A stretch of DNA of 64,000 nucleotides from an uncultured bacterium (lineage in GTDB: Bacteria; Actinomycetota; Actinomycetes; S36-B12; CAIKAW01), in the NCBI GenBank assembly GCA_903825575.1, contig CAIKAW010000081.1, forward strand, positions 25,793 to 89,792. The letters are read 5' to 3'. This document shows positions 15,171 to 59,319 of the stretch, in pieces. The translations under genes were made by a program, and so were the position numbers. A model generated the notes under the pieces. The model ran no database searches. It saw only the letters and a program-made list of their open reading frames with translations, and had not been told where the DNA came from. Numbering within the stretch: position 1 is the stretch's first letter; each line of letters begins with the position of its first letter.

Positions 15171-15183
15171 GTAGGGTTCGGGG

Positions 15184-23672: not shown

Positions 23673-23891
23673 GTGAAGCCCGAGATCCACCCGGCCTACG
23701 CCGAGACGACCGTGCACTGCACCTGCGGTTCGACGTTCGTGACCCGCAGCACAGCTAAGACCGGCGTGATTAACGCTGACGTCTGCTCGCAGTGTCACCC
23801 GTTCTACACGGGCAAGCAGAAGATCCTCGACACCGGCGGCCGCGTTGCCAAGTTCGAGGCGCGATTCGGGAAGAAGTCAGCCGAAAAGTAG
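23673..23891 (+). CDS. rpmE: 50S ribosomal protein L31 (zinc-ribbon form)
   Basis: MKPEIHPAY...HCTCG...[13 protein letters not shown]. Four Cys residues form the Zn ribbon. GAAGGAG precedes the GTG start. Confidence 0.93.
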
Positions 23892-37548: not shown

Positions 37549-37600
37549 GGGACCACCTTAGGCCCCATAGCGGCGGCGGGCTCGGTGGACGCTGGTTACC

Positions 37601-38893: not shown

Positions 38894-40881
38894 CTCGCGA
38901 TAAGCCGTGGCTGATGCGAACGTACGCTGGCCACTCCTCGCCCACTGAGTCAAACGAGTTGTTTCGAAAGAACTTAGCCAAGGGACAGACCGGCCTTTCG
39001 GTGGCCTTCGACCTGCCAACCCAGACGGGCTACGACCCGGACGACGACCTGGCCGTTGGCGAAGTTGGCAAGGTCGGGGTGCCTATTACGCACCTGGGCG
39101 ATATGCGAGCCCTGTTCGCCGGAATCCCGCTGAATCAAATGAATACTTCAATGACCATCAATGCGACGGCGATGTGGCTGCTGGCACTGTATGTCGTCGC
39201 TGCCGAGGAACAGGGCGTACCGGCAATCGAATTGTCGGGGACTACCCAGAACGACATCGTCAAGGAGTACCTGTCGCGCGGTACCTACATCTTCCCGCCC
39301 GGGCCAAGTCTTCGCCTGACGACTGATGTGATCGCTTACACCGTCACCAATGTGCCAAAGTGGAATCCGACGAACATCTGCAGCTATCACCTGCAAGAGG
39401 CTGGCGCGACGCCTGTGCAGGAACTGGCTTTTGCGCTGTCCACGGCGATCGCGGTGCTTGATGCCGTGCGCGATTCGGGGCAAGTGCCGCCGGAACGGTT
39501 CGGCGATGTAGTTGCGCGCATCTCGTTCTTTGTGAATGCCGGGGTGCGGTTCGTCGAAGAGCTGTCCAAGATGCGGGCCTTCGTTGCGTTGTGGGACGAA
39601 TTGACGCTGGAGCGCTACGGGGTTACCGATGCGGATCAGCGCCGTTTTCGGTACGGGGTACAGGTGAACTCACTCGGACTTACGGCGGCGCAACCCGAGA
39701 ACAACGTTCAAAGAATTGTGCTCGAAACACTTGGCGTGACGCTTTCCAAGAATGCCCGAGCGCGGGCTGTTCAGTTGCCTGCATGGAATGAAGCGCTTGG
39801 TTTGCCGCGCCCGTGGGACCAGCAATGGTCCTTGCGAATCCAGCAGGTGCTTGCCTTTGAAAGCGACCTCTTGGAATACCCGGACATATTCGATGGCTCG
39901 GTAGTTATCGAGAAAATGACTTCCGACTTGGTAGCCGCCGCCCGCGAGGAGATGGCGAAGGTGGCTTCGCTCGGTGGTGTTGTGGCGGCGGTTGAAAGCG
40001 GGTATCTAAAGTCTGCGCTTGTCTCATCGCATGCTGACCGCAGGGCCCGCATCGAGTCCGGTGAAGAAATCGTTGTCGGAGTCAATGCATTCGAGAACAC
40101 CGAACCGAGCCCGCTGACGGTCGATATCGATTCCTCCGTCATGCAAGTGGATCCGGCTGTCGAAGCCAAGGCGCGCGAGTCGCTCAATCGGTGGCGCTCA
40201 AGCCGGGAATCAGCTAGGTCATCGGCTGCGTTGGCGCAACTGATTGCCGCCGCCAATACCGCCGAGAACTTGATGCCAGCCACACTCGAATGCGTTCGCG
40301 CGGGCGTCACGACGGGGGAGTGGGCTGGTGCGCTCCGGGATGTGTTTGGCGAATACCGCGCTCCAACCGGGGTCTCAGGCGCCGTCGGTACTGCCGCACC
40401 CACACCGTCTTTGGCGGCGTTACGCGTGGCTGTTCGCGAAACGGGGATCGCGATCGGCGGCCACCTGCGCCTTCTAGTCGGTAAGCCGGGCCTAGACGGA
40501 CACAGCAACGGTGCCGAACAGATTGCGGTGCGGGCGCGCGACGCCGGCTTTGAGGTTGTGTATCAAGGAATTCGGCTGACGCCAGCACAGATTGTCGCTG
40601 CTGCCGTGGCCGAGGACGTTCAATGCGTCGGCCTTTCGATCCTGTCTGGCTCCCATCGGGTGGCAGTGCCCCAGGTTGTCGAGGGTTTGCGCGCTGCGGG
40701 CGTGACCGATGTTCCGGTTGTCGTCGGCGGAATCATTCCTGATGCCGACGCCGAATGGCTGCTGGCGAATGGAGTCGCAGCGGTTTTCACGCCGAAGGAT
40801 TTCGATGCCACGGTGATCATGTCCAAATTGCTTGATGAGATTCGCGTTGCGCACGGGCTGACTCGATTGGTCGGGTCGTGA
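38890..40881 (+). CDS. B12-dependent acyl-CoA mutase, catalytic and cobalamin-binding domains fused (methylmalonyl-CoA mutase family; likely ethylmalonyl-CoA mutase, MeaA/Ecm type)
   Basis: It has [33 protein letters not shown] and [12 protein letters not shown]. The C-terminal B12 domain has DxHxxG (GLDGHSNG). No G-protein domain is present. A GTGA overlap links it to murA. The subfamily call is inferred from remembered motifs and from the presence of ccr in the window. Confidence 0.8.
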
Positions 40882-43926: not shown

Positions 43927-45396
43927 TTAGCGCCGATGTCGCAGGCGGTCATAGCGAACGACGATGTCGGTGGCTCGCTTTGCCCGCGAGAACGAGGTGA
44001 GGCTGATCGGCGCCTTGAACTGCTGCCGGGTGATTGCCTTGGACCTAGCGAATTCGCGAAGTCCGTCGGCGCCGTGGATGCGGCCAAATCCTGAACTGCC
44101 GACCCCTCCCCAAGACAAGGCAGGGACTCCGGCGTACATAACCCAAGAGTTGATGCTGACCATGCCGACTCGAAGTCGTTCCGCCGCTTCCTGCGCTCGT
44201 CGTTTGCCGAAGACTGATGCGGCCAAACCGAATGGAGTTGAGTTGGCCAACTCGATTGCCTGGTCTAGGTCTCGGACCTTGGTTACCACGATCGTGGGTC
44301 CGAAAGTCTCTTCGGTCGCAGCAATGTTGCCGGGAGGGACATCGGTGAGCAAGATCGGGCCGATTAGGCGATCGCCTACCGATTCGGGTCCGCCCACCAC
44401 TGCTCGTCCGCCATCGGCAAGGGCCGCGTCCACGTGTCGCCTGACAACTTCGACCTGGCTGGGCATCGTCATAGGGCCGTACGAAGCGCCGTCCTGGCTG
44501 CCGGGGGTTAGATTGCGCAAGATGGCGGACAGTTCCGCCACGAACTGGTCGTAGCGCTCGGCCACGACGAACACCCGCTCAACCGCCGTGCAACTTTGAC
44601 CTGCGTTTGAGACCCCGCCAAATGCTGCCGCATCCGCCGCAGCGGACACATCGGCGTCCACATCGACGATGAGCGCGTCCTTGCCTCCGAGCTCGAGGAC
44701 CACCGGCGTAAGCGACTCGGCGCAAGTTGCCATCACCCGAGCCCCTGTCGTCGTCGAGCCGGTAAAGGACACCTTGTCGACCCCCGATCGGCAAAGCGCT
44801 GCACCAGTACCTCCACGCCCCGAGACCTGCTGCAGTACCGGATGCTCGGGCACGACTCGGGCGAAAGATTCGACTAGCCAGGCGCCGGTCGCAGTTGTGA
44901 ATTCACTCGGCTTAAACACAACGGCATTCCCTGCGGCAAGCGCGTAGGCGATCGAACCCATTGGAGTGAATACCGGGTAGTTCCACGGGCCGATAACACC
45001 GACGACGCCGAACGGTTCGTAGCGGAGGCTGGCCGACTGATTGGCCGTGAGAATGGTGCGCGAAACCCGGCGCTTTCCTAGAACTCGCGAAGCATTGCGG
45101 CCGGCCCAAGCAAGATGATCAAGAGTAAGAGCAACCTCGAGGACTGCGTCCGGCAACGGCTTGCCAGTTTCCAACGCAATCAGTTGCGCCAATTCGATCT
45201 CGTGAGCTGCGATGTCAGCCGCCCACCGGCGCAGGCGCCGCGATCGTTCCCTAAAGCCCAACCCAGCCCACCATCGACCGGCTCCACGGGCATGAGCCAC
45301 GACTTCCTCGACAGCGTCCACCCCCAGGACGGGGAAAGAGCCGACCAATCCCCCGGTGGTTGGCGAATGAATGTCGAAAGTCTCGGTTACCGTCAT
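43927..45396 (-). CDS. NAD(P)-dependent aldehyde dehydrogenase
   Basis: It has FTGSTTTG, ELGGKDA and the catalytic Cys region NAGQSCTAVERV. The start was trimmed to ATG 45396, because the ORF extension to 45588 is Pro/Arg-rich and overlaps the divergent gene. Confidence 0.88.
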   Translation of the reverse strand: MTVTETFDIHSPTTGGLVGSFPVLGVDAVEEVVAHARGAGRWWAGLGFRERSRRLRRWAADIAAHEIELAQLIALETGKPLPDAVLEVALTLDHLAWAGRNASRVLGKRRVSRTILTANQSASLRYEPFGVVGVIGPWNYPVFTPMGSIAYALAAGNAVVFKPSEFTTATGAWLVESFARVVPEHPVLQQVSGRGGTGAALCRSGVDKVSFTGSTTTGARVMATCAESLTPVVLELGGKDALIVDVDADVSAAADAAAFGGVSNAGQSCTAVERVFVVAERYDQFVAELSAILRNLTPGSQDGASYGPMTMPSQVEVVRRHVDAALADGGRAVVGGPESVGDRLIGPILLTDVPPGNIAATEETFGPTIVVTKVRDLDQAIELANSTPFGLAASVFGKRRAQEAAERLRVGMVSINSWVMYAGVPALSWGGVGSSGFGRIHGADGLREFARSKAITRQQFKAPISLTSFSRAKRATDIVVRYDRLRHRR

Positions 45397-45529: not shown

Positions 45530-47311
45530 ATGGAAGGCAAGGTCAGCAAGGTCGGGGTCGTCGGCCTCGGGACGATGGGGGCCGGCATTGCCGAGGTTTT
45601 TGCTCGCGCTGGCTATGACGTGCTCGGTGTCGACGAATCAGAGGGTGCTGTCGAGCGCGGCCGGGCTCACGTTGACGGGTCGACAAATCGCGCTGTCAGC
45701 CGGGGCAAGCTCACCGACGTTGAGCGGGCCGGCATCTTGGCAAACATCAAGTACTCGACGTCGCTAGATGACCTAGCTGATCGCGATCTGGTGATTGAGG
45801 CGGTTCCCGAGCAACTCGAACTCAAGCGCCGGATCATGGCGCACCTAGATGGCATCCTCGCCCCACACGCCATCTTGGCAAGTAATACGTCGTCTTTGTC
45901 GGTCACTCAGATCTCCGTCGCCACTTCGCGTCCTGCACGTGTGGTGGGTATGCACTTCTTCAACCCGGCCCCGGTCTTGCGGTTCGTTGAAATTGTGCAA
46001 ACGGTCGTGTCTGACCCAGAAGTTGTGGCCACGGTACGTGGAGTTGCAGAAAGCTTGGGTAAGGAGCCGGTGGTTGTAGGTGACAAGGCCGGGTTTATCG
46101 CGAACGCTCTCCTTTTTGGCTACCTAAATCACGCAATCTCGATGTACGAGAACCGTTATGCCACCCGAGAGGACATCGACGCAGCCATGCGGTTGGGCTG
46201 CGGCCTGCCCATGGGGCCGCTCGCGCTACTCGACTTGATCGGGCTCGACACGGCATACGAGGTGCTAGACACGATGTACCGCGAGGGCCGAGACCGACTT
46301 CATGCACCCAGCCCGATACTTAAGCAGTTGGTCACGGCAGGTCTACGCGGGCGCAAGAGCGGACGAGGCTTCTACTCCTATGAGCAGCCCAACTCCCCAG
46401 TAGTCATCCCGGATGCGGCAACTCCGATCAACGATGCGAGCAGTGGTCCAATCCCGCGGTCGATCCAGTCGGTCGGAATTGTTGGTTCAGGCACCATGGC
46501 AACAGGGATGATCGAGGTATTCGCCCGCGCTGGATTCGACACTATCTTTGTCGCGCGTTCGCCCGAGAAGGTCGCAAAGGTTCTCGCGAATCTACAGAAG
46601 TCACTCGATAAGGGCGTCGCTCGCGGCAAGTTAACGCAAGATGAGCGAGCTGAAGCGCTGACGCACGTGACCGGTACGTCGACTTTGGACGATCTGTCTC
46701 GCGTGGACTTAGTGATTGAGGCAGTTGTCGAGGAACTAGGTGTCAAGACCGCGCTTTTCGCCGCGCTCGATGAGATCTGTCGTAGCGGAGCGGTGATCGC
46801 CACGACTACGTCGAGCCTGCCGGTTGTCGAATTGGCAGCGGCGACTTCGCGTCCACAGGATGTCGTTGGGCTGCACTTCTTCAATCCGGCCGCCGTGATG
46901 CGTTTGGTTGAGGTCGTACACACCGTGGCGACATCAGATGACGTGATCGTGACGGCCATTGATGTTTGCCAGCGGCTTGGAAAGCACCCAGTCCAGTGTG
47001 CCGACCGGGCTGGCTTCATTGTGAATGCATTGTTGTTCCCGTACCTGAATGACGCGGTGAAGATGCTCGAGGCGAACTACGCCAGTGCCGACGACATCGA
47101 CACCGCGATGAAGACTGGCTGTGGGTACCCGATGGGTCCATTCGAACTTTTGGATGTTGTCGGACTTGATGTCTCACATGCGATTCAGCGGACGCTGTAC
47201 CTAGAATTCCGCGAGCGCGGCTTCGCCCCGGCACCTTTACTTGAGCACCTCGTTACGGCTGGGTACCTCGGACGTAAGACCGGGCGTGGCTTTCGAACGT
47301 ATGCGGTGTGA
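45530..47311 (+). CDS. tandem-duplicated 3-hydroxyacyl/3-hydroxybutyryl-CoA dehydrogenase (two complete HBD modules)
   Basis: It has two Rossmann starts (VGVVGLGTMGAGIAEVFA and VGIVGSGTMATGMIEVFA). Each is followed by NTSSL/TTSSL, HFFNPA and a C-terminal dimerisation domain. The start is at ATG 45530, after GGGAG. Confidence 0.85.
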   Translation: MEGKVSKVGVVGLGTMGAGIAEVFARAGYDVLGVDESEGAVERGRAHVDGSTNRAVSRGKLTDVERAGILANIKYSTSLDDLADRDLVIEAVPEQLELKRRIMAHLDGILAPHAILASNTSSLSVTQISVATSRPARVVGMHFFNPAPVLRFVEIVQTVVSDPEVVATVRGVAESLGKEPVVVGDKAGFIANALLFGYLNHAISMYENRYATREDIDAAMRLGCGLPMGPLALLDLIGLDTAYEVLDTMYREGRDRLHAPSPILKQLVTAGLRGRKSGRGFYSYEQPNSPVVIPDAATPINDASSGPIPRSIQSVGIVGSGTMATGMIEVFARAGFDTIFVARSPEKVAKVLANLQKSLDKGVARGKLTQDERAEALTHVTGTSTLDDLSRVDLVIEAVVEELGVKTALFAALDEICRSGAVIATTTSSLPVVELAAATSRPQDVVGLHFFNPAAVMRLVEVVHTVATSDDVIVTAIDVCQRLGKHPVQCADRAGFIVNALLFPYLNDAVKMLEANYASADDIDTAMKTGCGYPMGPFELLDVVGLDVSHAIQRTLYLEFRERGFAPAPLLEHLVTAGYLGRKTGRGFRTYAV

Positions 47312-47314
47312 GCG

Positions 47315-47620
47315 TTGGCCCGCCGAAACCGCCGTCGCGATGATGCGCCCCTCGAACTGCGAGTCGGAGCGCGGCAAGAGGTTGAGGAACACTCCGACGG
47401 CGACTGGGTAGTTCGCCGCATCACCGGATCTTCGTCCGTGAAGACCTATCGCTGCCCAGGCTGTGACCAAGAAATCCGTCCGGCCACCCCGCACGTTGTC
47501 GCTTGGCCGGCCGATATGGCTGCCGGCGAGGAAGATCGTCGTCACTGGCACTCGGCCTGCTGGACAGCGCGTGAACGCCGCGCTCCGCGCGGCCCACGTG
47601 GCGCCGGACCTAGGTACTAG
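47315..47620 (+). CDS. hypothetical small basic protein with possible zinc-ribbon (CPGC ... HSAC)
   Basis: 101-aa ORF tightly following hbd (3-nt gap). Its composition looks coding-like. No function was recognised. Confidence 0.5.
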   Translation: MARRNRRRDDAPLELRVGARQEVEEHSDGDWVVRRITGSSSVKTYRCPGCDQEIRPATPHVVAWPADMAAGEEDRRHWHSACWTARERRAPRGPRGAGPRY

Positions 47621-47629
47621 CGTCCCTGC

Positions 47630-48370
47630 ATGAATAGGATTCGGGCCAATTCCGTGCTGCCCGCTGAACGTCGACCAATCACGCTGCAGACTTCCGATGG
47701 ACTGCAACTGGTTGGGGAACTGGCCAGTCCGATTGGACGGCCCCCGACCGCCACATTGATCTGTGTGCATCCGCTCCCGACGCATGGCGGAATGATGGAC
47801 AGCCATGTGCTTCGCAAAGCGGCTTGGCGATTACCAGCACTAGCCGGCGTTGCAATCCTGCGCTTCAACACACGCGGCACGGCCAGTGCTGCTGGCACGA
47901 GTCAAGGTCGCTTCGACGGTGGAACGGCCGAGGGCCTCGACTTGGCGGCTGCAATTGCATTCACGCTTGCACTTGGATTGCCAGACCCTTGGCTACTCGG
48001 TTGGTCATTCGGCACTGACGTCGTCATTCGCCACGGCGATGTAGACCCGGTACAAGGCGCGATTCTCCTGTCGCCCCCGTTGCACTACTCGCAGCCCGAG
48101 GACCTCTTGCACTGGGCTGTTTCCGGCCGGGCGCTGGTAGCCGTCGTACCGGAGTTCGACGACTACCTGCGGCCCGAAGCAGCACGGGAAAGGTTTGCCG
48201 TCGTGCCGCAGGCGCAAGTGATTGCAGTGCCAGGCGCCAAACACCTGTGGGTCGGCGAGCCATTGGTGCGTATTGTGCTGGATGAAACAGTTCACTGGCT
48301 GGCACCGGAGATAGGGCCGCTGCCGACGACGTGGAACGGCGAAATGAGCTCGTGGAATGACTTGGCGTGA
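47630..48370 (+). CDS. alpha/beta hydrolase fold protein
   Basis: 246 aa. It has a nucleophile elbow GWSFG and an HPLPTHGG oxyanion-like region. Confidence 0.7.
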   Translation: MNRIRANSVLPAERRPITLQTSDGLQLVGELASPIGRPPTATLICVHPLPTHGGMMDSHVLRKAAWRLPALAGVAILRFNTRGTASAAGTSQGRFDGGTAEGLDLAAAIAFTLALGLPDPWLLGWSFGTDVVIRHGDVDPVQGAILLSPPLHYSQPEDLLHWAVSGRALVAVVPEFDDYLRPEAARERFAVVPQAQVIAVPGAKHLWVGEPLVRIVLDETVHWLAPEIGPLPTTWNGEMSSWNDLA

Positions 48371-48395
48371 CCCTCACTAGCGAACGGAGAGCCAC

Positions 48396-49157
48396 ATGAG
48401 TTTCGACTTGACCGGGCGACGAGCAATCGTGACTGGTGCGTCGCGTGGAATCGGCCGAGCCATCGCAATTGCGTTCGCAGCCGCAGGCGCCGACGTGGCA
48501 CTTCTCGCACGCGATGGCGAGACGTTGGCAGAGGTGAGTGCCCGAGTATCTGAATTTGGACGCTTAGCTGTCGTCCTACCGACCGACGTCTTAGACGCGG
48601 AGGCCACCCGCGCCTCCGTTGCTGCCGCCATCGACGCGCTTGGTGGGCTTGACATCGTGGTGAATAACGCCGGCGGCAACTCCTTTATGTGGCCAGCCGT
48701 GAGCATGCGTCCGGCAGGGTGGGAGCGCACCCTGCACCTGAACTTGGATTCGGTATTTACGGTTTGCCAGGCTGCCGGACCTCATTTATTGGCCCAGGGA
48801 AGCGGCTCCGTGATCAACGTCGCGTCGGTTGCCGGGCACGGCGCCGTACCTGGGATGGCTCACTATGCGGCAGCAAAGGCAGCAGTTCTTTCGCTGACCA
48901 GAACCTTGGCCTTTGAGTGGGCGGAGAGCGGAGTGCGCGTTAACGCTTTAACCCCAGGCTGGATTGAGACCGATCTGACTGACTTCCTGCGGACCTCTGG
49001 TGAGACGGAAGCTGGCGTGCTCGCTGGTGTACCCATGCATCGCTGGGGGCAACCTCACGAGTTAGCCCAACCCGCGGTCTTCTTAGCATCAGATGCATCA
49101 TCATTCATGACCGGTCAGGAATTGGTGATCGACGGTGGCCTGCTGGTCGCTCCGTGA
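48396..49157 (+). CDS. SDR family oxidoreductase (FabG-like)
   Basis: It has TGASRGIGRAIA, NNAG and YAAAKAA motifs. Confidence 0.85.
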   Translation: MSFDLTGRRAIVTGASRGIGRAIAIAFAAAGADVALLARDGETLAEVSARVSEFGRLAVVLPTDVLDAEATRASVAAAIDALGGLDIVVNNAGGNSFMWPAVSMRPAGWERTLHLNLDSVFTVCQAAGPHLLAQGSGSVINVASVAGHGAVPGMAHYAAAKAAVLSLTRTLAFEWAESGVRVNALTPGWIETDLTDFLRTSGETEAGVLAGVPMHRWGQPHELAQPAVFLASDASSFMTGQELVIDGGLLVAP

Positions 49158-49942
49158 GTTCGATTGACCGGCCCGCGCTCATTTTGCTGCATGCCTTTCC
49201 GCTGGATCATCGGGTCTGGGACGACGTCATTGGGTGCCTGCGCGAATCACCGCGGTGGATCGAACGGGTAGTGCTAACTCCGGACTTTCGAGGTTTCGGT
49301 GCGACACCCTTGGCCGACTCCAACGACGCAACGATACCCGCGCCGAGTCTGGACGTGCTTGCCGACGACGTCCTCACTGGCCTCGACGCTGCAGGGATCG
49401 AACGAGCGGTAGTCGCTGGTGTCTCGCTCGGGGGATACGTTGCGATGGCCCTTCTCCGGCGGGCACCTGAGCGAATCGTCGGACTCGGACTGGTGGACAC
49501 CAAGCCGGGACCTGACGGCGTCGACGCGCGGGCGAATCGCCTGCGGATTGCGGACGACATGAAAGCTGGCGGTAACGTCGCGGCGCTAGCCCGTGCCATG
49601 CTCCCGGGCCTTCTTGGTCCGACAACACTTACCGAATCCCCAGAGCTGGTAGAGCGAGTACGCGACTGGATTCACGGGGCAGATCCGTTAGCGATCGCGT
49701 GGGTGCAACGAGCAATGGCCCAACGTCCCGACTCAATTCAGGAGCTACGCGACTTCACTGGGCCGGCGACAATTGTGTGGGGCGAAGACGACGCGCTAGC
49801 GGGCTGGCTCGAACAGGACGCGATGGCTCAGGCATTGCAGGTTCCGGTTAGACGCATCGAAGCAGTTGGGCATCTGACACCGGTGGAGGCACCCGTAGAA
49901 GTCGCCGCAGCAATTCATATGCTTCTCGACGTTGCAACCTAG
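49154..49942 (+). CDS. alpha/beta hydrolase
   Basis: It has a nucleophile elbow GVSLGG and a C-terminal His (AVGHLTPVE). A GTGA overlap links it to the SDR gene. Confidence 0.8.
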   Translation: MSSIDRPALILLHAFPLDHRVWDDVIGCLRESPRWIERVVLTPDFRGFGATPLADSNDATIPAPSLDVLADDVLTGLDAAGIERAVVAGVSLGGYVAMALLRRAPERIVGLGLVDTKPGPDGVDARANRLRIADDMKAGGNVAALARAMLPGLLGPTTLTESPELVERVRDWIHGADPLAIAWVQRAMAQRPDSIQELRDFTGPATIVWGEDDALAGWLEQDAMAQALQVPVRRIEAVGHLTPVEAPVEVAAAIHMLLDVAT

Positions 49943-49956
49943 CCCCAGGGCGTGGG

Positions 49957-50460
49957 CTAGCGGTCGGGTGGCGGCTGCGTGGTCGCCAATTGGGTAGTGG
50001 CTTGAGCGATCTGCTCGGCAATGAGTTCTACAACAGGAGCCACCGCACTACGCACAGCCTGCGTTAGGCCGGTGCCCGAAGACATATCGGCAACTTCGAC
50101 TCCGAGGATCACCAGACGCGTTGGCATTCGGTCAAGGGCGCGCCCGAATTCGATTGCGTCTTGGACACCCAGGGCGTGGCTACTTCTCCCGGCCGTAGTC
50201 AACTGCAGCCCGGAAGCATCAGACGTCGCCGTAACTTCGAAATGATGAACAGTGCCGGGCGGCTGGGAGCCCGATTCAGCCGCATCCACCAAGATCGCCA
50301 ATTCGCGGTCCTGCCAGCGTTCGACTAGAGCGGCCGGTTCGCCAAGTTCCTCAACCACGTCGATTGCTAAACCCAGCTCGGCGACCGCTTCGATGATGGC
50401 CAACCCAACCCCGTCGTCATGTCGGTACGGGTTTCCGATCCCGATAACAATCGGACGCAT
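49957..50460 (-). CDS. hydrogenase maturation endopeptidase (HyaD/HycI family)
   Basis: It has IVIGIGNPYRHDDGVG and a later His region. The start was trimmed to ATG 50460, which shares one nucleotide with the large-subunit TGA. Confidence 0.85.
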   Translation of the reverse strand: MRPIVIGIGNPYRHDDGVGLAIIEAVAELGLAIDVVEELGEPAALVERWQDRELAILVDAAESGSQPPGTVHHFEVTATSDASGLQLTTAGRSSHALGVQDAIEFGRALDRMPTRLVILGVEVADMSSGTGLTQAVRSAVAPVVELIAEQIAQATTQLATTQPPPDR

Positions 50461-51764
50461 CAGGCGCGGACAATCGTCAGGTCGAGGAAGTGAGTGGCGC
50501 AAGAAATGCAGGGGTCGTAATTGCGGATCGCTTGTTCGCACTGCCTAGTAAGTTCGCCGTCATCAAGATGCAGTCGTTGTGAAACGAACTCGCGCATGTC
50601 GTGCTCAATTGCGTGTTGATTCTGCGATGTTGGCGGAATGATCACGGCATCGAGCACTGAACCGTCGGCCCCGATGTCGTAGCGGTGGTACAAAGTCCCA
50701 CGAGGTGCTTCAGTGCAGCTATGGCCTCTACCGGCTCGTCCGATAACCGAAACCGAAGGGGCACGGGGAGGCGCGTAACTTTCAACGATCCGTAGAGCTT
50801 CATCAAGAGCAAAAACCAATTCCACAGCCCGCACGATGATGCTCTGGAAGGGGTTGCGACATACCGGTCCGAGCCCGGCAGAAACTGCGGCCTGCCTTGC
50901 GATTTCGGGCAACTTGTCGTAGTTCAACGAATAGCGAGCCAGTGGTCCGACGAGGTATTCCCCACGCTCAAGCAAGTGTGCCTGCAGGGCGTTGGAATGC
51001 GGCACGTGTTCCTCCGCCACGTGATCGAGGAAATTCGCGACATCGATATCGAGGCCACGATCCGAGACGAGTCGACCTTCGTTCAGCGGATACTCGTGAG
51101 GGTGGCGAAGTGAGACTAGCTCCCAGTCACCGTTGAAGTCGGGGAACTCGAAACCACCTACCCAGGCCACCGTGTCAAGGGCATCCTGCCGGGCGCGACG
51201 CAGCGGTTCGACTAGCGCGGCTAGCGCTGACTGACTTGGAGATCGGTAGAAGCCACCAACTCGCACATTGACCGGATGGATCGCGCGACCACCAACGATT
51301 TCGATCAACTCGTTGCCGACCTTCTTCATCCTCAAACCACGCTCGACCAGGGCCCGGTGGTCGCGTGCCAATTCGATTGCGCTTCGAAAACCTAGGAAGT
51401 CAGGAGCATGCAACAGATAGATGTGGAGCGCATGGCTTTCGATCCATTCACCGCAGTACAGCAGCCGCCGTAGGTCCCTCAAGTCTGCTGGAAGCGTGAC
51501 GCCAAGGGCCTGCTCAATCGCATGACAGGCGCTCATCTGGTACGCAACTGGACAGATGCCGCAGATGCGGGCTGTGATGTCCGGGGGCTCGGTGAAATTG
51601 CGCCCACGTAACAGGGCCTCGAAAAAGCGCGGCGGTTCGTAGATCTCAAGTCGAACGTCCGTAACTTGGCCGTCAACAACGTTGACATGCATGGCGCCTT
51701 CGCCTTCAACTCTGGTCAACGCCCGTACGTCTAGAGTGCGAATACCGCGATGTGAATGCGTCAT
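50460..51764 (-). CDS. hyhL: [NiFe] hydrogenase large subunit, group 3b-like (434 aa)
   Basis: The N-terminal NiFe ligand motif is [16 protein letters not shown]. The C-terminal motif is DPCISCATH, followed by a short cleavable tail. The short length fits the group 3 cytosolic enzymes. Confidence 0.92.
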
Positions 51765-52564
51765 TCAGAACCTCGCCTTGGGGACTGGATCGGGTACAGG
51801 GCCAAGGCGGCGGTCCTAAACTCCGGTGCGTTTACGTTGAAGGTGCTAAAGCTGCGTTCAATGTCGCGATCGTTGGTACCGACGCGACGCAATTGCTCTG
51901 TCAGAGCGGCTGTGTTAGCGCTTTCGCTGGGCCCAAAGCAGCCAAAGCAGCCGCGTCCAATCGAAGGGCAAAGGGAATGGCAGCCTGCTTGTGTCACCGG
52001 CCCCAAACACGGGGTCCCCGAAGCGACAAGCACACAGGCATTTCCAGCCTGCTTGCATTCTTGGCACACCGAGTAGCTAGGTAATCTGGGCGTACGGCCG
52101 GCTAGCAGAGCCGAGATCGCTTCCAGTAGTTGAGTTCGGCTGATCGGACAGCCGCGAAGTTCGAGATCTACCGGAACGTGGTCCGCGATTCCCGTCGATG
52201 TTTCGAGCGTCTTGATAAATTCTGGATGCGCATACACGATCGACGTGAATTCTTGGACATCGGCGGAGTTACGCAGTGCCTGGATGCCGCCGGAGGTAGC
52301 ACACGCCCCGATAGTCACTAACTTCCTTGACGCCGCGCGAACCTCGCGGATGCGTTCGGCGTCGTGAGCCGTGGTGATAGACCCCTCAACCAACGACACG
52401 TCGTACATCTGATCGACACGATCGTGGCCCGCCTCAAGAAAGTAGGCGATATCGATAGCCTCTGAAAGGCCGAGAATCTCGTCCTCGCAATCGAGCAAAG
52501 TGAGTTGACAGCCGTCGCAAGACGAGAATTTCCAGACGGCTAGCGTGGGGCGGCTCGTAGTCAC
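51761..52564 (-). CDS. hyhS: [NiFe] hydrogenase small subunit (delta; NuoB-like FeS protein)
   Basis: It has [20 protein letters not shown] and RGCP, plus a Cys-rich C-terminus. The start was placed at GTG 52564, overlapping the gamma-subunit TGA (GTGA). An ATGA overlap links it to the large subunit. Confidence 0.85.
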
Positions 52565-53412
52565 AGTTCGCGCACCCCAAGCATCGATTCCACTCTGGCC
52601 CACGGGAAGACCGGTCCGTCCGAGCAAACGAACAACTCGCCAAACTGGCAGTGCCCGCACATCGTGACGGCGCATTGCATGTTGCGTTCCATCGACACTT
52701 GGATACCTTCAGCGGAAACTCCGCGATCCAGCAGTGCGCGGGCACCAAATCGCATCATGACCTCTGGGCCGCACACGAATGCGACCGCATCAGTTAGGTT
52801 ATGTCGAATTCGACCGAGGAGTGTGGTGACCACCCCGACGTCGCCAGTCCAACCCGGAGCAGAGCGGTCGACTGTTGTCTCGACTTGGAGCGACAGGCTC
52901 CAAGCTGCGGTCTCAGCCGGGAAAAGCAGATCATTGGGCGTCCGGGCACCTAGCAATACCGCCACCTGACCGTAGGCTTCGCGATCCGCCAAGATTGCCT
53001 CCACAACTGGCCGCAATGGCGCCAGCCCAATCCCGCCGGCCATCACCACCACATCCTGACCTCGGGCTGGCGTCAGATCCCATCCGATGCCGAAAGGTCC
53101 ACGGACACCGAGTTGATCGCCGGGCCTGAGCTCGCAAAGCGCATGGCTCACGGCACCAACGTCGTGAATCGTGTGAAGGATGACGTTGGTTAATGGCGGG
53201 ACTGCGCAAAGCGAAATTGGTACTTCGCCAACGCCGTAGGCCCACAACATATTGAACTGGCCCGGCGCCGGAGCCGTCAGCGCGTCGCTCAACTCGATAA
53301 CAAGCGTGACTGTCCCTGGCCCTTCGACGACACGGTCAACGACCCGAGCAACGGTCGGCGTCATGGGGCCGGCGCCTGAGAGATCAGCTGGTCGGCGCAC
53401 GGTGGTACACAT
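52561..53412 (-). CDS. hyhG: hydrogenase gamma subunit: FAD/NAD(P)-binding oxidoreductase with C-terminal 2Fe-2S site (AsrB-like)
   Basis: It has a ferredoxin-NADP reductase-like fold ([13 protein letters not shown] and [10 protein letters not shown]) and a CxxxxCxxC...C cluster ([16 protein letters not shown]). ATG 53364 is an alternative start. Confidence 0.85.
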
Positions 53413-53851
53413 CCAGTAGTCGAAGGTGAGTTGAACGAAGGTCTGCGTCGAGTAGCGTCGAGAAGCGTTTCATCAGGTCGTAGCCCAGTACCGGATCGCT
53501 ATCGCACTTGCCTCGGATGCAATGGCCGTCGAATTGGATGGTCGCGAGAGGCTCGAGGGCTTCGGCGTCGAAGTGCCAGCGATATGGAGGGAACAGCCAT
53601 GACCAGCCGACAATCTGACCCGGGCCGCGCGTCTCCAATGTCACCAAGCCAGCGTGCGGTGTGTAGATGCCTAGCGCTACTCGGCCTTCGCGGATTAGAT
53701 GAAAGTCTGTGGCAGGCGCGCCTTCGGTGAAGAGTCGAGTGCCGGCGTGGATTCGCTGGTGCCGCGCGCAGCCCGCTAGGAGCGTCAGGGTACTTTCATC
53801 GATGTCGGCAAAAATTGGCTGCGCCGCAAGGGTTTCCATGATCGACTTCAT
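53384..53851 (-). CDS. stand-alone cyclic-nucleotide-binding-like domain protein (no HTH)
   Basis: 155 aa. FADIDESTLTLLAGCARHQRIHAGTRLFTEGAPATDFHLIREGRVAL is the cNMP/Crp-type beta-barrel pattern. An ATGA overlap links it to the upstream beta-subunit gene. Confidence 0.75.
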   Translation of the reverse strand: MKSIMETLAAQPIFADIDESTLTLLAGCARHQRIHAGTRLFTEGAPATDFHLIREGRVALGIYTPHAGLVTLETRGPGQIVGWSWLFPPYRWHFDAEALEPLATIQFDGHCIRGKCDSDPVLGYDLMKRFSTLLDADLRSTHLRLLDVYHRAPTS

Positions 53852-55161
53852 GTGGCTAGCCCTTCGTCGGTTTGTGGCCGAACACTTTCGGGGTACTTGG
53901 TGGCGGTATCTGTGGCCCGAATCGCCTCAAGTTCGGTCCTGATATCGATGCCTACCGGACAGGTAGTGATGCAACGACCGCAGCCGACGCAGCCAGACAC
54001 GTCAAACTGGTCAACCCAAGTCGACATCTTGTGGGTCAGCCACTGGCGGTATCGGGAACTGGTCGACGTTCGCGCATTCCCACCGTGCATTTGCGAGTAG
54101 GAGACACCGAAGCAAGAAGCCCATACCCGCGCTCGTACGACTCCATCATCGCCGATGGGGTTCTCGTCTACGACGTCGCTGCAGAAACAAGTTGGGCACG
54201 ACATGGTGCAATTCCCGCAGGATAGACAGCGGGCCGCTACGTCATCCCAACGCGGATTCTCGCGATTGCGGGCGAGTAGCTCGTGGACATCGTCAAGCTT
54301 CACGCCTTGTCCGATTGCGGTCGCCGCGGCCTGCACGATCTGGGTTGCGGCACCCGTTTCGGAATCAGATGCCGGTTTGCATGCGAGTTGAGCAAGCACG
54401 TCCGCCCCGGCTTGGGTTCCAGCATTTGCAACGAAATAATGGTCAGGGGAGTTGGGCGTTGAATTTACTTCGGTGAGCCGGATGTCGTAGCCCCCTGATG
54501 CTTCGGGCCCGGTACCTGCAGATACGCAGAAGCAGGTCGCCGCCGGACTGCCGCAGGACACAGCCACCACAAACATGTCTTGGGTATTTGCCGCGTAAGT
54601 CGGGTCGGGTGCTTCGGGTCGCATGAACACCCGGCGCTGGACGTCCAAGGCAGCGATTTCGCAGGCCCGCATTCCGATGAATGCATACCGAGGTCTCGCG
54701 GGGGGGATCGTGGTTATAGCTAGCGCGCCATCTTCACGTCGCGCCCGGAACAGTTCGCTGCGAGCCGGGAAGACGTAGCGCTTCCACGACGTCGGTGCCA
54801 GCGCGTATCCGAACAGTGCATCGTCGTCACGTCGTCGCAGTCGATAGTGACCGGGCCCCTGTTCATCACCCCAGCCGGACGGCAAATCGGCCGCGCCGCC
54901 GATTGGCTGATAGCCGATTACCGGTCCGTCGACCTTCGGGCCGATCACGGTGCGACCGTCAGCACCCAACCTGCGAATGAGTTGGTCGACGTCGGCGACG
55001 GTGAGGATCAAAGGACCGCCGAACGCTTGCGGCTCGATCTGGGGCTGAGGTTGCGGCGCCACTGGTTTCCTCACGGCACCATCGTCCTGCTGGGCGGGTT
55101 CGGGCTCAAGGGTCGTTGGGTAGCGCGTCCGGGAGTCATCAGACCCGAACATATCTTCCAT
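53848..55161 (-). CDS. hyhB: hydrogenase beta subunit: 4Fe-4S dicluster protein (AsrA/HydB-like)
   Basis: It has the ferredoxin-type motifs CLSCGNCTMSCPTCFC and CVGCGRCITTCPVG. It is the first gene of the tightly coupled hydrogenase cluster. The start is ATG 55161 (alternative 55152). Confidence 0.8.
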   Translation of the reverse strand: MEDMFGSDDSRTRYPTTLEPEPAQQDDGAVRKPVAPQPQPQIEPQAFGGPLILTVADVDQLIRRLGADGRTVIGPKVDGPVIGYQPIGGAADLPSGWGDEQGPGHYRLRRRDDDALFGYALAPTSWKRYVFPARSELFRARREDGALAITTIPPARPRYAFIGMRACEIAALDVQRRVFMRPEAPDPTYAANTQDMFVVAVSCGSPAATCFCVSAGTGPEASGGYDIRLTEVNSTPNSPDHYFVANAGTQAGADVLAQLACKPASDSETGAATQIVQAAATAIGQGVKLDDVHELLARNRENPRWDDVAARCLSCGNCTMSCPTCFCSDVVDENPIGDDGVVRARVWASCFGVSYSQMHGGNARTSTSSRYRQWLTHKMSTWVDQFDVSGCVGCGRCITTCPVGIDIRTELEAIRATDTATKYPESVRPQTDEGLAT

Positions 55162-55228
55162 TCATGGGTGCGCCGATTGTTTCACCTATGCGCACCCACG
55201 GCACTTTCCTCAGGTGTTTCGGAAGCGG
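55157..55228 (+). repeat. interspersed repeat, copy C (contains 8-bp hairpin GGGTGCGC-N16-GCGCACCC)
   Basis: The core CACCTATGCGCACCCACGGCACTTT lies at 55183..55207. The hairpin arms lie at 55166..55173 and 55190..55197. The repeat fills the 48-nt gap between the ccr stop and the hyhB start. Confidence 0.6.
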
Positions 55229-56541
55229 TTGATCTCGGTTAGGTGGCGGGCTCTTAGCTCTGGGTTTCGGACCCCCAGGCCTTCCTCGGGGGTCAGACAG
55301 CGCACCCCAACTTTTCCTTGGTGCAGGTTGCGGTGCACTTCGAATGCGGCCTGACCGGTGTCTTCTAGAGCAAAGGTTTTGGACAGCGTGGGGTGTACCT
55401 TGCCGCGCTGGATCAGCCGGTTGGCCTCCCAGGCTTCGCGGTAGTTCGCGAAGTGTGACCCGACGATTCGCTTCAGGCTCATCCACAGGTATCGGTTGTC
55501 GTACTCGTGCATGTACCCCGATGTTGACGCGCACGTGACAATCGTCCCGCCTTTGCGGGCGACGTACACACTCGCGCCGAAAGTCTCCCGGCCCGGATGT
55601 TCGAAAACGATGTCCACATCGTCGCCGTCAGAAAGGTCACGAATCTGGCGTCCGAGCCGTTGCCATTCCTTCGGGTCCTGGGTGTGCTCGTCTTTCCAGA
55701 ACTTGTACCCCTCAGCAGCCCGGTCAATGATCAACTCCGCGCCCAGGCTACGAGCTATCTCCGCCTTCTCAGGAGAAGACACGACGCAAATCGGAGTGGC
55801 CCCTCCATTGATTGCCAACTGGGTTGCGTAGGAGCCGAGGCCACCGGAGGCTCCCCAAATTAGGACGAGGTCGCCTTGCTTCATCCCGGCACCATTGCGT
55901 GAGACCAACTGGCGGTAAGCGGTGGAGTTGACGAGCCCGGGTGAGGCGGCTTCTTCCCAAGTCAAGTGGTCTGGCTTGTGCAGGAGTTGATTGGCCTTGA
56001 CTAAGGCAACCTGCGCTAGGCCGCCGAAGTTCGTCTCAAAACCCCAGATTCGTTGCTCGGGATCGAGCATTGTGTCGTTGTGCCCGAGTGGGCTTTCCAG
56101 CTCAACGGAAAGGCAGTGGGCGACTACCTCTTGGCCTGGTGCCCAAGTGTGGACACCGGGTCCAACCTTCAGCACGACGCCCGACAGGTCGGAGCCGATC
56201 ACGTGGTAGGGCAAGTCATGGCGTTTGGCCAGTGGGTTAGTGCGGCCGTAGCGCGCCAAGAAAGAGAATGTCGAAACCGGCTCAAAGATTGCCGACCACA
56301 CTGTGTTGTAGTTGATTGAGCTGGCCATTACCGCAACCAGTGCTTCACCGGGGCCAACCTCCGGTAGCGGGACATCTTCCACGTGCAGCGACTTACGCGG
56401 ATCGCGCTCGGGCGTCGACACGCCATCGAACATCTGTTGCTCGTCGCGGTGGACGGTCACGGCGCGATACGTCTCGGGCAGTCGAAGATTTCCGATCGAC
56501 TCGTTTGCGCCGGCAAGAATGGCGTCGAGGATCTGTTGCAT
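55210..56541 (-). CDS. ccr: crotonyl-CoA carboxylase/reductase
   Basis: 443 aa. The pattern LPETYRAVTVH..DPRKSLHVEDVPLPE..SSINYNTVWSAIFEP..RIWGFETNFGGLA is the Ccr-type MDR reductase pattern as remembered. AGGAG lies upstream of the ATG. Confidence 0.88.
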   Translation of the reverse strand: MQQILDAILAGANESIGNLRLPETYRAVTVHRDEQQMFDGVSTPERDPRKSLHVEDVPLPEVGPGEALVAVMASSINYNTVWSAIFEPVSTFSFLARYGRTNPLAKRHDLPYHVIGSDLSGVVLKVGPGVHTWAPGQEVVAHCLSVELESPLGHNDTMLDPEQRIWGFETNFGGLAQVALVKANQLLHKPDHLTWEEAASPGLVNSTAYRQLVSRNGAGMKQGDLVLIWGASGGLGSYATQLAINGGATPICVVSSPEKAEIARSLGAELIIDRAAEGYKFWKDEHTQDPKEWQRLGRQIRDLSDGDDVDIVFEHPGRETFGASVYVARKGGTIVTCASTSGYMHEYDNRYLWMSLKRIVGSHFANYREAWEANRLIQRGKVHPTLSKTFALEDTGQAAFEVHRNLHQGKVGVRCLTPEEGLGVRNPELRARHLTEINRFRNT

Positions 56542-56596
56542 CTCGGCTCCTGAAGCTGGGGGGTGCGGTGCGGTGAAACCTACCCGGTAGCCAACC

Positions 56597-57049
56597 TCAG
56601 CGCTCGACGGCTGCCTGAACTAACTCAACAAGCACGCCGCCGCAATCCTTTGGGTGGACGAAGTTAACCAAGGATCCCGCCGTGCCCGGGCGCGGGTACT
56701 CGTAGAGCACCCGCAGGCCAGCGGCCCGGAGCCGGACGGCTGCCGCGACGACGTCGACGACACCGAAAGCCAATTGCTGTACGCCAGGGCCATTGCGGTC
56801 TAAGAACTTGGCGATAGTTGAGTCAGGGGCAAGCGGGGCCAGGAGTTGCAGGAAGGCATCCCCGACCGCCAGCATTCCCTCGCGGACACCTTGGTCTTCG
56901 TTTATCTCCTCATGCACCAGTGGCAGCCCGAATGTTCGCGCGTAAAACTCGACCGCTGCATCGAAATCAGCGACTGCTAGGCCAACGTGATCAATCCGGG
57001 TAACCAGCGGTCCCAGCAGGTCTCCCACGGCTGGTCTGGCGTTGGTCAC
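56597..57049 (-). CDS. mce: methylmalonyl-CoA / ethylmalonyl-CoA epimerase (VOC family)
   Basis: RIDHVGLAVADFDAAVEFY..GVQQLAF..FVHPKDCGGVLVELVQ. The start was trimmed to GTG 57049, which is preceded by GGGGAGGA. The longer ORF to 57319 overlaps the divergent thiolase gene. Confidence 0.88.
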   Translation of the reverse strand: MTNARPAVGDLLGPLVTRIDHVGLAVADFDAAVEFYARTFGLPLVHEEINEDQGVREGMLAVGDAFLQLLAPLAPDSTIAKFLDRNGPGVQQLAFGVVDVVAAAVRLRAAGLRVLYEYPRPGTAGSLVNFVHPKDCGGVLVELVQAAVER

Positions 57050-57130
57050 GATGGTCCTCCCCGGGGCGATTGACGGGACTCGTCGTCGGTATCGTTTCAG
57101 GTCAGGTTGTGACTCGATCAGGAGGTCGTC

Positions 57131-58318
57131 ATGTCCGGCTCGGTAATCGTCGCAGGTGCCCGTACGCCAATGGGTCGACTCCTCGGTGGATTGAAGGATT
57201 TGTCGGCTCCTGCGCTGGGAGGGGTGGCTATCAAGGCGGCGCTCGAACGCGCTGGAGTCGCACCCGAACAAGTCGATTACGTGATCGTCGGCCAAGTCAT
57301 CCAGGCCGGTGCCGGACAAATGCCGGCTCGTCAGGCCGCCGTGGCCGGTGGGATCCCAATGGATGTGCCTTCGTTGTTGATCAACAAGGTCTGCCTTTCA
57401 GGAATCGATGCCATTGCACTGGCCGACCAACTAATCCGCGCCGGCGAATTCGAGATCATCGTCGCTGGCGGCATGGAGTCCATGACTAACGCACCGCACC
57501 TGCTGCCGAAGTCACGCGAAGGGTTCAAGTACGGCGACACGACCCTGGTTGATTCGATGGCCCACGACGCCTTGTTCTGCGCCTTCGATCAGGTAGCCAT
57601 GGGTGTTTCAACCGAGGGCTACAACGCACGTTATGACCTCACCCGCGAAGAGCAGGATGCTTTCTCAGCTCGCTCACACCAGCTTGCCGCCCGTGCGGCT
57701 GCGGCTGGGATATTCGCTGAAGAGATCGCACCAGTATCGATTCCGCAACGCAAGGGTGACCCCGTGGTTATCAGCGTTGACGAAGGAGTTCGAGGCGAAA
57801 CCACAGTGGAGTCGCTTGGTAAGTTGCGACCGGCCTTCGCGAAGGACGGCACTATCACGGCTGGTTCGTCCTCGCAGATTTCAGATGGCGCGTGTGCTGT
57901 TGTGGTCATGAGCAAGGCCAAAGCAGAAGAGCTCGGGCTGAGCTGGCTAGCTGAAATCGGAGCCCACGGAGTCGTCGCAGGCCCCGACGCGTCGCTGCAG
58001 GAACAACCGGCGAATGCGATTGCCAAGGCGTGCGCAAGAGAAGGAATCGCACCGACAGACCTCGACCTGATTGAAATCAACGAGGCGTTTGCAGCGGTTG
58101 GCATTGTGTCGCAGCGCAAGTTGGGTGTCGACCCGGATCGCGTGAACGTCAATGGCGGCGCGATCGCACTTGGTCACCCCGTTGGTATGTCAGGTGCGCG
58201 GATTGCTTTGCATCTGGCGCTTGAGTTGAAGCGTCGTGGTGGTGGGGTCGGAGCGGCCGCACTTTGTGGCGGCGGCGGTCAGGGCGACGCCCTAATCCTG
58301 CGCGTCCCGCGGAGTTGA
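57131..58318 (+). CDS. acetyl-CoA C-acetyltransferase (thiolase II)
   Basis: It has the acyl-Cys region [29 protein letters not shown] and the C-terminal Cys motif LCGGGGQG. Confidence 0.93.
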
Positions 58319-59319
58319 CCCAAGCACAATCCTCCGGCGATGTCGGGGGAGCGGAGGTTGTTGCCGACTTAGTGGCGCGGGCTCGCGCTGGGCAGCCGAG
58401 GGCGGTAGCGCGGTTGGTTTCGATGGTCGAGTCGGCGGCACCGCAACTTCGCGAAGTCATGTCCGCACTTGCGCCGGATTCAGGTAAGGCCTATGTCATT
58501 GGCATCACGGGTGCCCCTGGAGTCGGTAAGTCCACGACCACGTCGGCGCTAGTCCGTGCCTACCGTGCCGCAGGCCAGCGCGTGGGTGTGCTTGCGGTCG
58601 ACCCTTCGTCGCCATTTTCTGGCGGCGCGCTCTTGGGTGACCGAGTCCGAATGCAGGAGCACGCGACCGACCCGAACGTCTTCATCCGATCGATGGCTTC
58701 GCGCGGTCACCTCGGTGGCCTGGCAGCTGCGACCCCGCAAGCGTTGCGCGTCCTTGATGCCACTGGGGTTGACGTCGTCCTCGTCGAAACGGTTGGTGTT
58801 GGGCAATCTGAGATTGAAGTTGCGGCCGCGGTCGACACGACTTTGGTGCTTCTGGCCCCGGGCATGGGCGATGGCATCCAAGCAGCCAAGGCTGGCATCC
58901 TCGAGATCGGCGATGTGTTCGGCGTGAACAAGGCTGATCGTGACGGTGCTTCTGCAACGGCCAGGGAATTGCGCAGCATGGTTGCCCTTGGGAACCGGCA
59001 GGCGGGCGACTGGGTGCCCGAAGTTGTGTCTTTCTCGGCCGCCACGGGCCAAGGGATTGACGCCCTGCTGGTCGCGCTGGCCGCCCATCGCGACTACCTG
59101 CTTGGAGGAGCTCGACTCCTCGAGCGGCGGGTGCGTCGCGCGGCGGCAGAAGTCGAGGCCCTGACCGTCGCGACTTTGCGGGCCCGGATCGGCGAGGTTC
59201 GCGGCGACGCCCGGCTCGAATCCCTTGCCCGTTCGGTGGCCGAAGGCCGCACCGATGCCTACACGGCGGCCGATCGGCTTGCCGAAGCGCTAGCTGGGTC
59301 GGAGAAGATGGCGCCATGA
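58315..59319 (+). CDS. meaB: methylmalonyl-CoA mutase-associated GTPase MeaB (ArgK family)
   Basis: It has the P-loop [18 protein letters not shown] and NKAD. The start was tentatively placed at TTG 58315, overlapping the thiolase TGA. The ORF track starts at 58264. Confidence 0.88.

Follow-up and report, generated by a model that had tools for sequence, protein, structure and literature searches.

We analyzed a 64,000-nucleotide (nt) stretch of DNA from an uncultured actinobacterium (assembly GCA_903825575.1, contig CAIKAW010000081.1, positions 25,793–89,792; hereafter the window), in which six genes for a [NiFe] hydrogenase follow ccr, the gene for crotonyl-CoA carboxylase/reductase, on the minus strand. 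An earlier annotation made from the letters alone (the original prediction) proposed that this arrangement could tie H2 metabolism to the NADPH consumed by Ccr. We favor another explanation, to which we assign a probability of roughly 0.8: the hydrogenase genes form a group 3b cassette that is autonomous and spreads horizontally, it came to lie in a variable site downstream of ccr, and its adjacency to ccr is incidental. On this account, the segment from 49957 to ~55152 would be a self-contained cassette of six genes: hyhB, a gene for a protein with a cyclic nucleotide monophosphate (cNMP)-binding domain, hyhG, hyhS, hyhL, and a protease gene. It would have been acquired in the window's actinobacterial lineage, landing between ccr and a convergent alpha/beta-hydrolase gene, with the proximity to ccr an accident of the insertion site.

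The site downstream of ccr is a variable slot

Homologues of the window's Ccr were found at 93, 92, 89, 88, and 84% identity, the 93% ones in related metagenome-assembled genomes (MAGs) and the 84% set in MAGs labelled Ca. Nanopelagicales or Actinomycetes. Nine of the relatives' ccr loci include downstream sequence, representing five distinct arrangements, and none of the nine carries a hydrogenase there. In five (L082–L086; Ccr 93%) the slot is empty, the stop codons of ccr and of the hydrolase gene being 42 nt apart, and the surrounding backbone is that of the window: genes for GlgB, thioredoxin, MeaB, and thiolase; the divergent mce-ccr pair (mce, which encodes the methylmalonyl/ethylmalonyl-CoA epimerase, adjoins ccr in all of the relatives' loci); and the convergent hydrolase gene together with genes for a short-chain dehydrogenase/reductase, a 246-amino acid (aa) protein, an Rv1322-like protein, a double 3HCDH protein, an aldehyde dehydrogenase, and NucS. 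The proteins of this backbone are 59–93% identical to those of the window (mean ~78%). The slot is likewise empty in a sixth locus (L171; Ccr 83%; 52 nt), which also keeps the synteny from thioredoxin-meaB-thiolase through the 3HCDH gene. Because these relatives retain the whole backbone with ccr and the hydrolase gene only 42–52 nt apart, the empty slot is, judged from gene order, the ancestral state.

The other three loci hold unrelated cargo at this position: an AraC-type gene and a glyoxalase gene (L087; Ccr 89%), an amidase gene abutting ccr (L088; Ccr 84%), or four unrelated genes (L170; Ccr 81%). The site between the convergent ccr and hydrolase genes is a hypervariable cargo slot in the window's actinobacterial family. 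The ccr–hydrogenase adjacency itself is found only in the window's species, that is, in the window and in a contig assembled from another sample (L172; ERZ18668215). This contig is 99.81% identical to the window over 10,704 nt without gaps (window 47210–57913), has the same gene order (thiolase-mce-ccr-hyh-hydrolase), and contains both junctions of the cassette. We also considered the C-terminus of the hydrolase as a marker of the insertion point, and it proved uninformative, as this end of the protein is variable throughout the relatives.

A conserved cassette that occurs elsewhere without ccr nearby

To place the hydrogenase genes, we scanned GTDB species genomes, which yielded 80 cassette loci whose gene order was read by tblastn, and metagenome contigs with a HyhB query, which yielded 80 further loci (identity no higher than 53%; in 47 of them the contig extends 1.5 kb or more upstream of hyhB). 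The order hyhB-cNMP gene-hyhG-hyhS-hyhL-protease gene recurs in 72–76 of the 80 genome loci, which come from Actinomycetota, Acidobacteriota, Dormibacterota, Planctomycetota, Bacteroidota, Proteobacteria, and other phyla; the cassette was also seen in the 80 metagenome loci. Across phyla, its genes are conserved as a unit. In none of the genome loci (E≤1e-10 within 10 kb) or metagenome loci (1e-8 within 7 kb) does a homologue of Ccr, Mce, or thiolase lie near it. The original prediction had suggested that related genomes be surveyed for conservation of the ccr–hyh adjacency; it is absent from the 9 relatives' ccr loci and from all 160 other cassette loci.

The only recurrent neighbors, identified by clustering the flanking open reading frames (ORFs), were hypF, hypE, and hypD, located downstream of the cassette in 15–18 of 80 loci. 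A MeaB homologue was present within 10 kb in none of the 80 genome loci. The sole MeaB-like case comes from a metagenome locus (L158), where the gene directly upstream of hyhB (positions 12–596 of that contig) encodes a G3E GTPase that shares 49% identity with MeaB of the window; this gene may be HypB-like or ArgK-like.

The large subunit, HyhL, has at least 8000 database relatives. The nearest besides the window's own protein is 77% identical, in contrast to the 93% reached by homologues of Ccr, and a plateau at 65–70% follows that extends across phyla, with members such as Dormibacterota, Brocadiia, Acidimicrobiia, and other Actinomycetes. The nearest cassette relative is a soil metagenome locus (L001; HyhL 77%, subunits 72–83%, and protease 54% identical). 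We considered whether this cassette occupies the same slot and rejected it as an example: its 3' flank lacks the hydrolase gene, and on the 5' side the sequence breaks off within hyhB. The locus L087, which comes from the same sample, carries ccr without the cassette. A search for closer HyhB relatives in metagenome contigs that might display an older ccr junction was also unproductive, the top match being only 53% identical.

The hydrogenase is related to group 3b enzymes

Searched against solved structures (PDB, phmmer), HyhL gave its top full-length matches to the alpha subunit of Pyrococcus furiosus sulfhydrogenase I (9nez, 208.6 bits) and the Thermococcus kodakarensis cytosolic hydrogenase (5yxy, 206.5 bits), ahead of MvhA (group 3c, 171 bits), HoxH (group 3d, 152.5 bits), FrhA (group 3a, 126.5 bits), and group 1 enzymes (<95 bits). 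Among NCBIfam models, HyhL scored 263 bits with ShyA and 224 with HydA, versus 145 with FrhA and 122 with VhuA. The top models were thus ShyA/HydA for alpha, and equally ShyD/HydD for the small (delta) subunit and ShyB/HydB for beta; for the gamma subunit the top match was AsrB, with HydG and ShyC lower. All four scores fall far under the sulfhydrogenase equivalog cut-offs (alpha 263 vs 700, delta 170 vs 460, gamma 134 vs 650, and beta 113 vs 750 bits), and the cassette proteins are therefore related to the archaeal enzymes rather than equivalogs of them. Because both the structure matches and the NCBIfam ranking favor the 3b/sulfhydrogenase type, the assignment to the group 3b, NAD(P)-linked hydrogenases made in the original prediction is well supported on sequence grounds. 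The gene set for a heterotetramer is complete, with an AsrA-like beta, an AsrB-like FAD/NAD(P) gamma, a small delta, and a large alpha subunit.

The two large-subunit motifs named in the original prediction are in place, RICGIC at R66–C71 and DPCISCATH at D417–H425, the latter followed by a 9-residue C-terminal extension. All four NiFe-ligand cysteines (C68, C71, C419, and C422) are kept, HyhS carries all 12 cysteines that are invariant among 123 homologues, and every reading frame of the cassette is intact in the window. The L1 motif (51540–51567, residues 66–75) ends in Tyr75, as opposed to the His of the canonical RxCGxCxxxH; this Tyr is invariant in 25 of 25 members of the bacterial 3b clade to which the window's HyhL belongs.

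Most junctions between the hydrogenase genes are short start/stop overlaps, as had been predicted, and could be read directly in the sequence: ATGA between hyhB and the cNMP gene, GTGA between hyhG and hyhS, ATGA between hyhS and hyhL, and TGATG between hyhL and the protease gene, where the hyhL stop and the protease start share one base. From these overlaps, the cassette genes are predicted to be translationally coupled. The junction between the cNMP gene and hyhG can be read in both of the ways originally proposed: the short hyhG start leaves a gap of 19 nt, and the long start makes the two genes overlap by 29 nt. Alignments with homologues begin at residue 1 of the short form, which favors the short start.

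A cNMP-domain gene was detected in 74 of 81 and 74 of 80 cassette loci, each time between hyhB and hyhG. Because it is nearly universal, always occupies this position, overlaps the hyhB stop with its start in the window, and encodes no helix-turn-helix domain, its product fits better as an enzyme subunit or accessory protein, by analogy with HoxI, than as a transcription factor.

The hyhB start and the boundary with ccr

Aligned with 73 other HyhB sequences, the homology begins at median residue 51 of the window's hyhB ORF, and most of these homologues have an in-frame stop at most 12 codons upstream of the point where homology starts. The first ~50 codons of the ORF (55011–55161) are rich in P, Q, and E and have no counterpart in the 73 homologues. 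The letters GAGGAAA precede a GTG at 55062, and a start there would give a 404-aa HyhB; this GTG is probably the real start, and the public gene call, which begins at 55152 (434 aa), is probably too long. The gap of 48 nt reported in the original prediction is correct as the distance from ccr to the first ATG of the ORF. As a distance between genes it is probably too short: because HyhB homology starts at residue ~51, which makes GTG 55062 the likely start, the ccr–hyhB gap is more likely ~147 nt.

Two segments can be distinguished within this gap. The window and the relative L085 align without gaps from inside ccr, past its stop codon and across the whole 48 nt, to ~55153, and the 48-nt gap is therefore ancestral ccr 3' flank that was not imported with the cassette. 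The remainder, 55063–55152, is probably untranslated, and this cassette-borne leader of ~100 nt could hold the cassette's own promoter. In the model we favor, expression would come mostly from a leader of this kind (~100–150 nt), with some read-through from mce-ccr possible.

The ancestral flank contains a GC-rich hairpin, matched in stability by only 2 of 200 shuffled sequences. It is followed by AUGAAUGG and has no U-tract, which sets it apart from canonical intrinsic terminators; its role may be that of a terminator or of an mRNA-stabilizing structure. Relatives have a weaker hairpin at the equivalent site between the convergent genes. We looked for covariation between the window and these relatives, and none was usable, the stems being in different registers. 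Matches to terminators with a U-tract numbered two in 49500–57600, fewer than expected by chance, and neither lies at the ccr–hyhB junction. In an Rfam search the sole match was a tRNA (14960–15031), with nothing credible in 54900–55300.

DosR-type regulation was considered and set aside for the window, as the pattern GGGACTWWAGTCCC (≤3 mismatches allowed) occurs 4 times, with 4.7 occurrences expected, and not near hyhB. No motif upstream of hyhB was shared across 137 cassette loci. Sporadic dyads occur there, a CRP/FNR-like TGTGA-N6-TCACA in 5 of the 137 and a DosR-like GGGAC-N4-GTCCC in 4, neither of them in the window. The lack of a common motif, with only such sporadic dyads, suggests that each host lineage may regulate the cassette in its own way. 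In L001, the non-coding DNA after the cassette (4056–4226) holds two dyads resembling DosR boxes, TGACTGAAGTCCC and AGGACCTAAGTCAC.

Alternative explanations for the ccr–hydrogenase adjacency

Several observations weigh against an autonomous, inserted cassette. GC content at third codon positions is the same in the cassette genes (0.62–0.67) as in the flanks (0.63–0.71), so there is no compositional sign of recent transfer. We saw no mobile-element genes or target-site duplications at the cassette borders. A consensus scan of 49500–57600 found no sigma-70-like promoter. The cassette is co-directional with mce-ccr, as is the cargo of L087 and L088, which tightly abuts ccr; in L170, by comparison, the first gene in the slot is on the opposite strand. 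Because of this shared orientation, and because the hairpin after ccr has no U-tract, genes in the slot may be read through from the mce-ccr promoter.

The best-surviving alternative, though an unlikely one, is that the cassette is a passenger in decay: a recent, poorly integrated arrival that is non-functional or under relaxed selection. As the original prediction had stated, hyp maturation genes are missing from the window; none was found by a Pfam/NCBIfam scan of ~55 of its ~60 called ORFs, which left out five short ones (72–196 aa; 14920–15174, 23673–23891, 43964–44554, 44669–44947). The comparison with L172 points the same way. Of 20 single-nucleotide polymorphisms (SNPs) between the two sequences, the cassette accounts for 12, of which 8 are nonsynonymous and 4 synonymous, and the flanks have 2 nonsynonymous and 6 synonymous; among the changes in L172 are C186W in HyhS, at a cysteine invariant in 123 of 123 homologues, and the loss of the protease stop codon (TAG to CAG at 49959). 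These changes could reflect relaxed selection or assembly error, and the SNPs are too few to claim the former, the contrast being small (p~0.2 by rough estimate, not computed). Against decay stand the intact reading frames of the window, the complete sets of HyhL ligand and HyhS invariant cysteines, and the preserved overlaps between genes. Moreover, group 3b cassettes often lack adjacent hyp genes, as judged from our neighbor clustering and from published work (PMC11879354), and for a working cassette, maturation would have to rely on hyp genes elsewhere in the genome.

Less probable still is the functional module of the original prediction, in which ccr and the hydrogenase genes are co-transcribed and either H2-derived NADPH feeds crotonyl-CoA carboxylation or excess NADPH is vented as H2 during ethylmalonyl-CoA flux. 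This coupling is chemically sensible. Ccr is a genuine NADPH- and CO2-consuming enzyme (TIGR01751), a domain for binding NAD(P) is present in the gamma subunit, and the neighborhood is rich in genes for C4/C5 acyl-CoA metabolism, which encode the thiolase, the double 3-hydroxybutyryl-CoA dehydrogenase, the epimerase, MeaB, and the single-chain acyl-CoA mutase. Moreover, ccr and the hydrogenase genes lie on one strand at short distance, 48 nt to the ORF start or ~147 nt to the probable start, and the arrangement persists in two samples. Comparative support is absent, however: because the adjacency is missing from the relatives, which the original prediction had itself named as evidence to the contrary, and from the other cassette loci, we find no support for the coupling. 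In addition, some relatives carry unrelated genes in the slot, a stable hairpin separates ccr from hyhB, and a literature search returned no natural coupling of Ccr to a hydrogenase, its matches being in vitro or electroenzymatic work. If true, the coupling would for the first time connect a hydrogenase with Ccr-type reductive carboxylation in nature, with relevance to the design of H2-driven CO2-fixation pathways. A version slightly less probable again would combine the two histories, with a captured hydrogenase read through from the mce-ccr promoter and co-opted to link H2 to the NADPH pool for crotonyl-CoA carboxylation, as an early stage of operon formation confined to this species.

Finally, although the window derives from a metagenome-assembled genome, a chimeric contig joining a hydrogenase fragment to the ccr locus is effectively excluded, because both junctions recur in the independent assembly L172 at 99.81% identity without gaps; the cassette is also bracketed on both sides by the syntenic backbone of the relatives.

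Overall, the evidence favors the ordinary case of a widely mobile group 3b cassette in a hypervariable slot, with no new mechanism. The cassette belongs to a known family and has a lineage-specific location. The locus provides a clean, bracketed example of cassette insertion for which the empty site is kept in relatives, as well as a probable correction of the hyhB start, and it supports the view that the cNMP-domain protein is an integral, nearly universal part of bacterial group 3b cassettes.

Gene content and wider context of the window

The eight genes from mce to the protease gene were found as minus-strand ORFs exactly where the original prediction had placed them (Table 1), and their identities held up as well: mce and ccr exceed curated NCBIfam cut-offs, and Pfam and NCBIfam matches agree for the hydrogenase subunits and the endopeptidase. 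The longest ORF for hyhS extends to 52675.

Table 1. Features of the ccr–hydrogenase locus (window coordinates).
Feature	Coordinates	Strand	Evidence and remarks
Alpha/beta-hydrolase gene	49154..49942	+	Abhydrolase families; convergent with ccr; bounds the variable slot on the right
Hydrogenase maturation endopeptidase, 167 aa	49957..50460	-	TIGR00072, 102 bits vs cut-off 47; HycI Pfam
hyhL, [NiFe] large subunit, 434 aa	50460..51764	-	PF00374 (NiFeSe_Hases); ShyA 263 bits; PDB 9nez and 5yxy, ~207 bits full length
hyhS, small (delta) subunit, 267 aa	51761..52564	-	GTG start overlaps hyhG stop; Oxidored_q6; top models ShyD, HydD
hyhG, AsrB-like FAD/NAD(P)-binding 2Fe-2S gamma subunit, 267 aa	52561..53364 (long start 53412)	-	NAD_binding_1, DHODB_Fe-S_bind
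cNMP-binding-domain protein, 155 aa, no helix-turn-helix domain	53384..53851	-	PF00027 is the sole Pfam family match
hyhB, AsrA-like 4Fe-4S beta subunit, ORF 437 aa	53848..55161	-	Fer4_22, 108 bits; top NCBIfam sulfhyd_HydB, sulfhyd_ShyB
Putative cassette-borne leader / non-homologous 5' part of the hyhB ORF	55063..55152	-	Homology to relatives' ccr flank stops near 55153
11-bp GC-rich hairpin in ancestral ccr 3' flank	55163..55200	-	-23.2 kcal/mol, z = -2.8; inverted repeat also found
ccr, crotonyl-CoA carboxylase/reductase, 443 aa	55210..56541	-	TIGR01751 equivalog, 586.9 bits vs cut-off 378.55
mce, methylmalonyl/ethylmalonyl-CoA epimerase, 150 aa	56597..57049	-	GTG start after GGGGAGGA; TIGR03081, 128.2 bits vs cut-off 114.95
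Thiolase gene	57131-58318	+	Thiolase_N/C; divergent from mce-ccr; conserved mce-ccr context
meaB	58315-59319	+	TIGR00750; divergent from mce-ccr; conserved mce-ccr context

Elsewhere, the window holds housekeeping genes, among them argS, lysA, hom, thrC, thrB, rho, prfA, prmC, glyA, the atp operon, murA, nucS, glgB, and glgE. The order across 29905–62543 (atp operon, murA, nucS, Rv1322-like gene, mce, thiolase, thioredoxin-TPR, glgB, glgE) presumably mirrors Mycobacterium tuberculosis Rv1304–Rv1327c. From this likeness, conservation of the backbone in Actinomycetes appears to be ancient, ccr and meaB having been added to it.

Genes related to vitamin B12 are spread over 36976–40881, 58315–59319, and 1542–2531 and encode a PduO-type cobalamin adenosyltransferase, an acyl-CoA mutase, MeaB, and a CarH/LitR-like MerR-family regulator with B12-binding domains. 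The mutase, a single chain of 663 aa, scores 534 bits against a methylmalonyl-CoA mutase equivalog cut-off of 876 bits and could be an ethylmalonyl-CoA mutase (ecm). The 3-hydroxybutyryl-CoA dehydrogenase (45530–47311, plus strand, 593 aa) is a tandem duplication with two full 3HCDH_N/3HCDH units, conserved in all relatives. Of the ethylmalonyl-CoA pathway genes, ccr and epi are present, and mcd, mch, and mcl were not seen within the window.

Comparison with known systems

The setting of the cassette resembles ethylmalonyl-CoA clusters of the ccr-ecm-meaB type, as in Streptomyces and Rhodobacter, in having ccr, epimerase, thiolase, MeaB, 3-hydroxybutyryl-CoA dehydrogenase, and single-chain B12 acyl-CoA mutase genes. 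It differs from them in lacking mcd, mch, and mcl, and no described cluster with a hydrogenase came up in a literature search.

With the archaeal enzymes, P. furiosus sulfhydrogenases I and II and the T. kodakarensis enzyme (PDB 9nez, 9e15, 5yxy), the hydrogenase shares the alpha-beta-gamma-delta architecture and its top full-length structure matches. It is set apart from them by scores far under the equivalog cut-offs (for example ShyA, 263 vs 700 bits) and by the L1 motif, which ends in His in P. furiosus sulfhydrogenase I (RICSFCSAAH) and in Tyr in the window's bacterial clade. The archaeal operons are not known to contain a cNMP-domain gene. A small accessory protein with such a domain does occur in another operon for a cytosolic NAD(P)-linked hydrogenase, as HoxI of the group 3d soluble hydrogenase of Cupriavidus necator, a likeness by description only; the cNMP protein of one group 3b cassette has been called HoxI-like (PMC12319191). 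By this analogy, the window's cNMP protein might be an NADPH-binding subunit.

The closest parallels in gene set are M. smegmatis Hyh/Hyd3 and the Frankia group 3b 'synton-4' (hyhGB-hupSL-protease), which share with it both diaphorase subunits (AsrA-like and AsrB-like), the small subunit, a short large subunit of ~430 aa, and a protease of their own. The cNMP gene recurs in synton-4 (Francci3_4499), where it is reported between the two diaphorase genes as in the window, and like the window's cassette synton-4 contains no hyp genes and has a patchy distribution that is not congruent with phylogeny (PMC11879354). M. smegmatis Hyh is regulated by DosR and evolves H2 in hypoxia, disposing of reductant (bioRxiv 10.1101/2023.09.11.557286). 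The window's cassette, which we liken to it by gene set, has no DosR-like box. By analogy with M. smegmatis Hyh, the enzyme would work as a cytosolic, NAD(P)H-linked, bidirectional hydrogenase, most likely serving to balance NAD(P)H and H2. What distinguishes the window's cassette from both the M. smegmatis and the Frankia systems is its place directly downstream of ccr.

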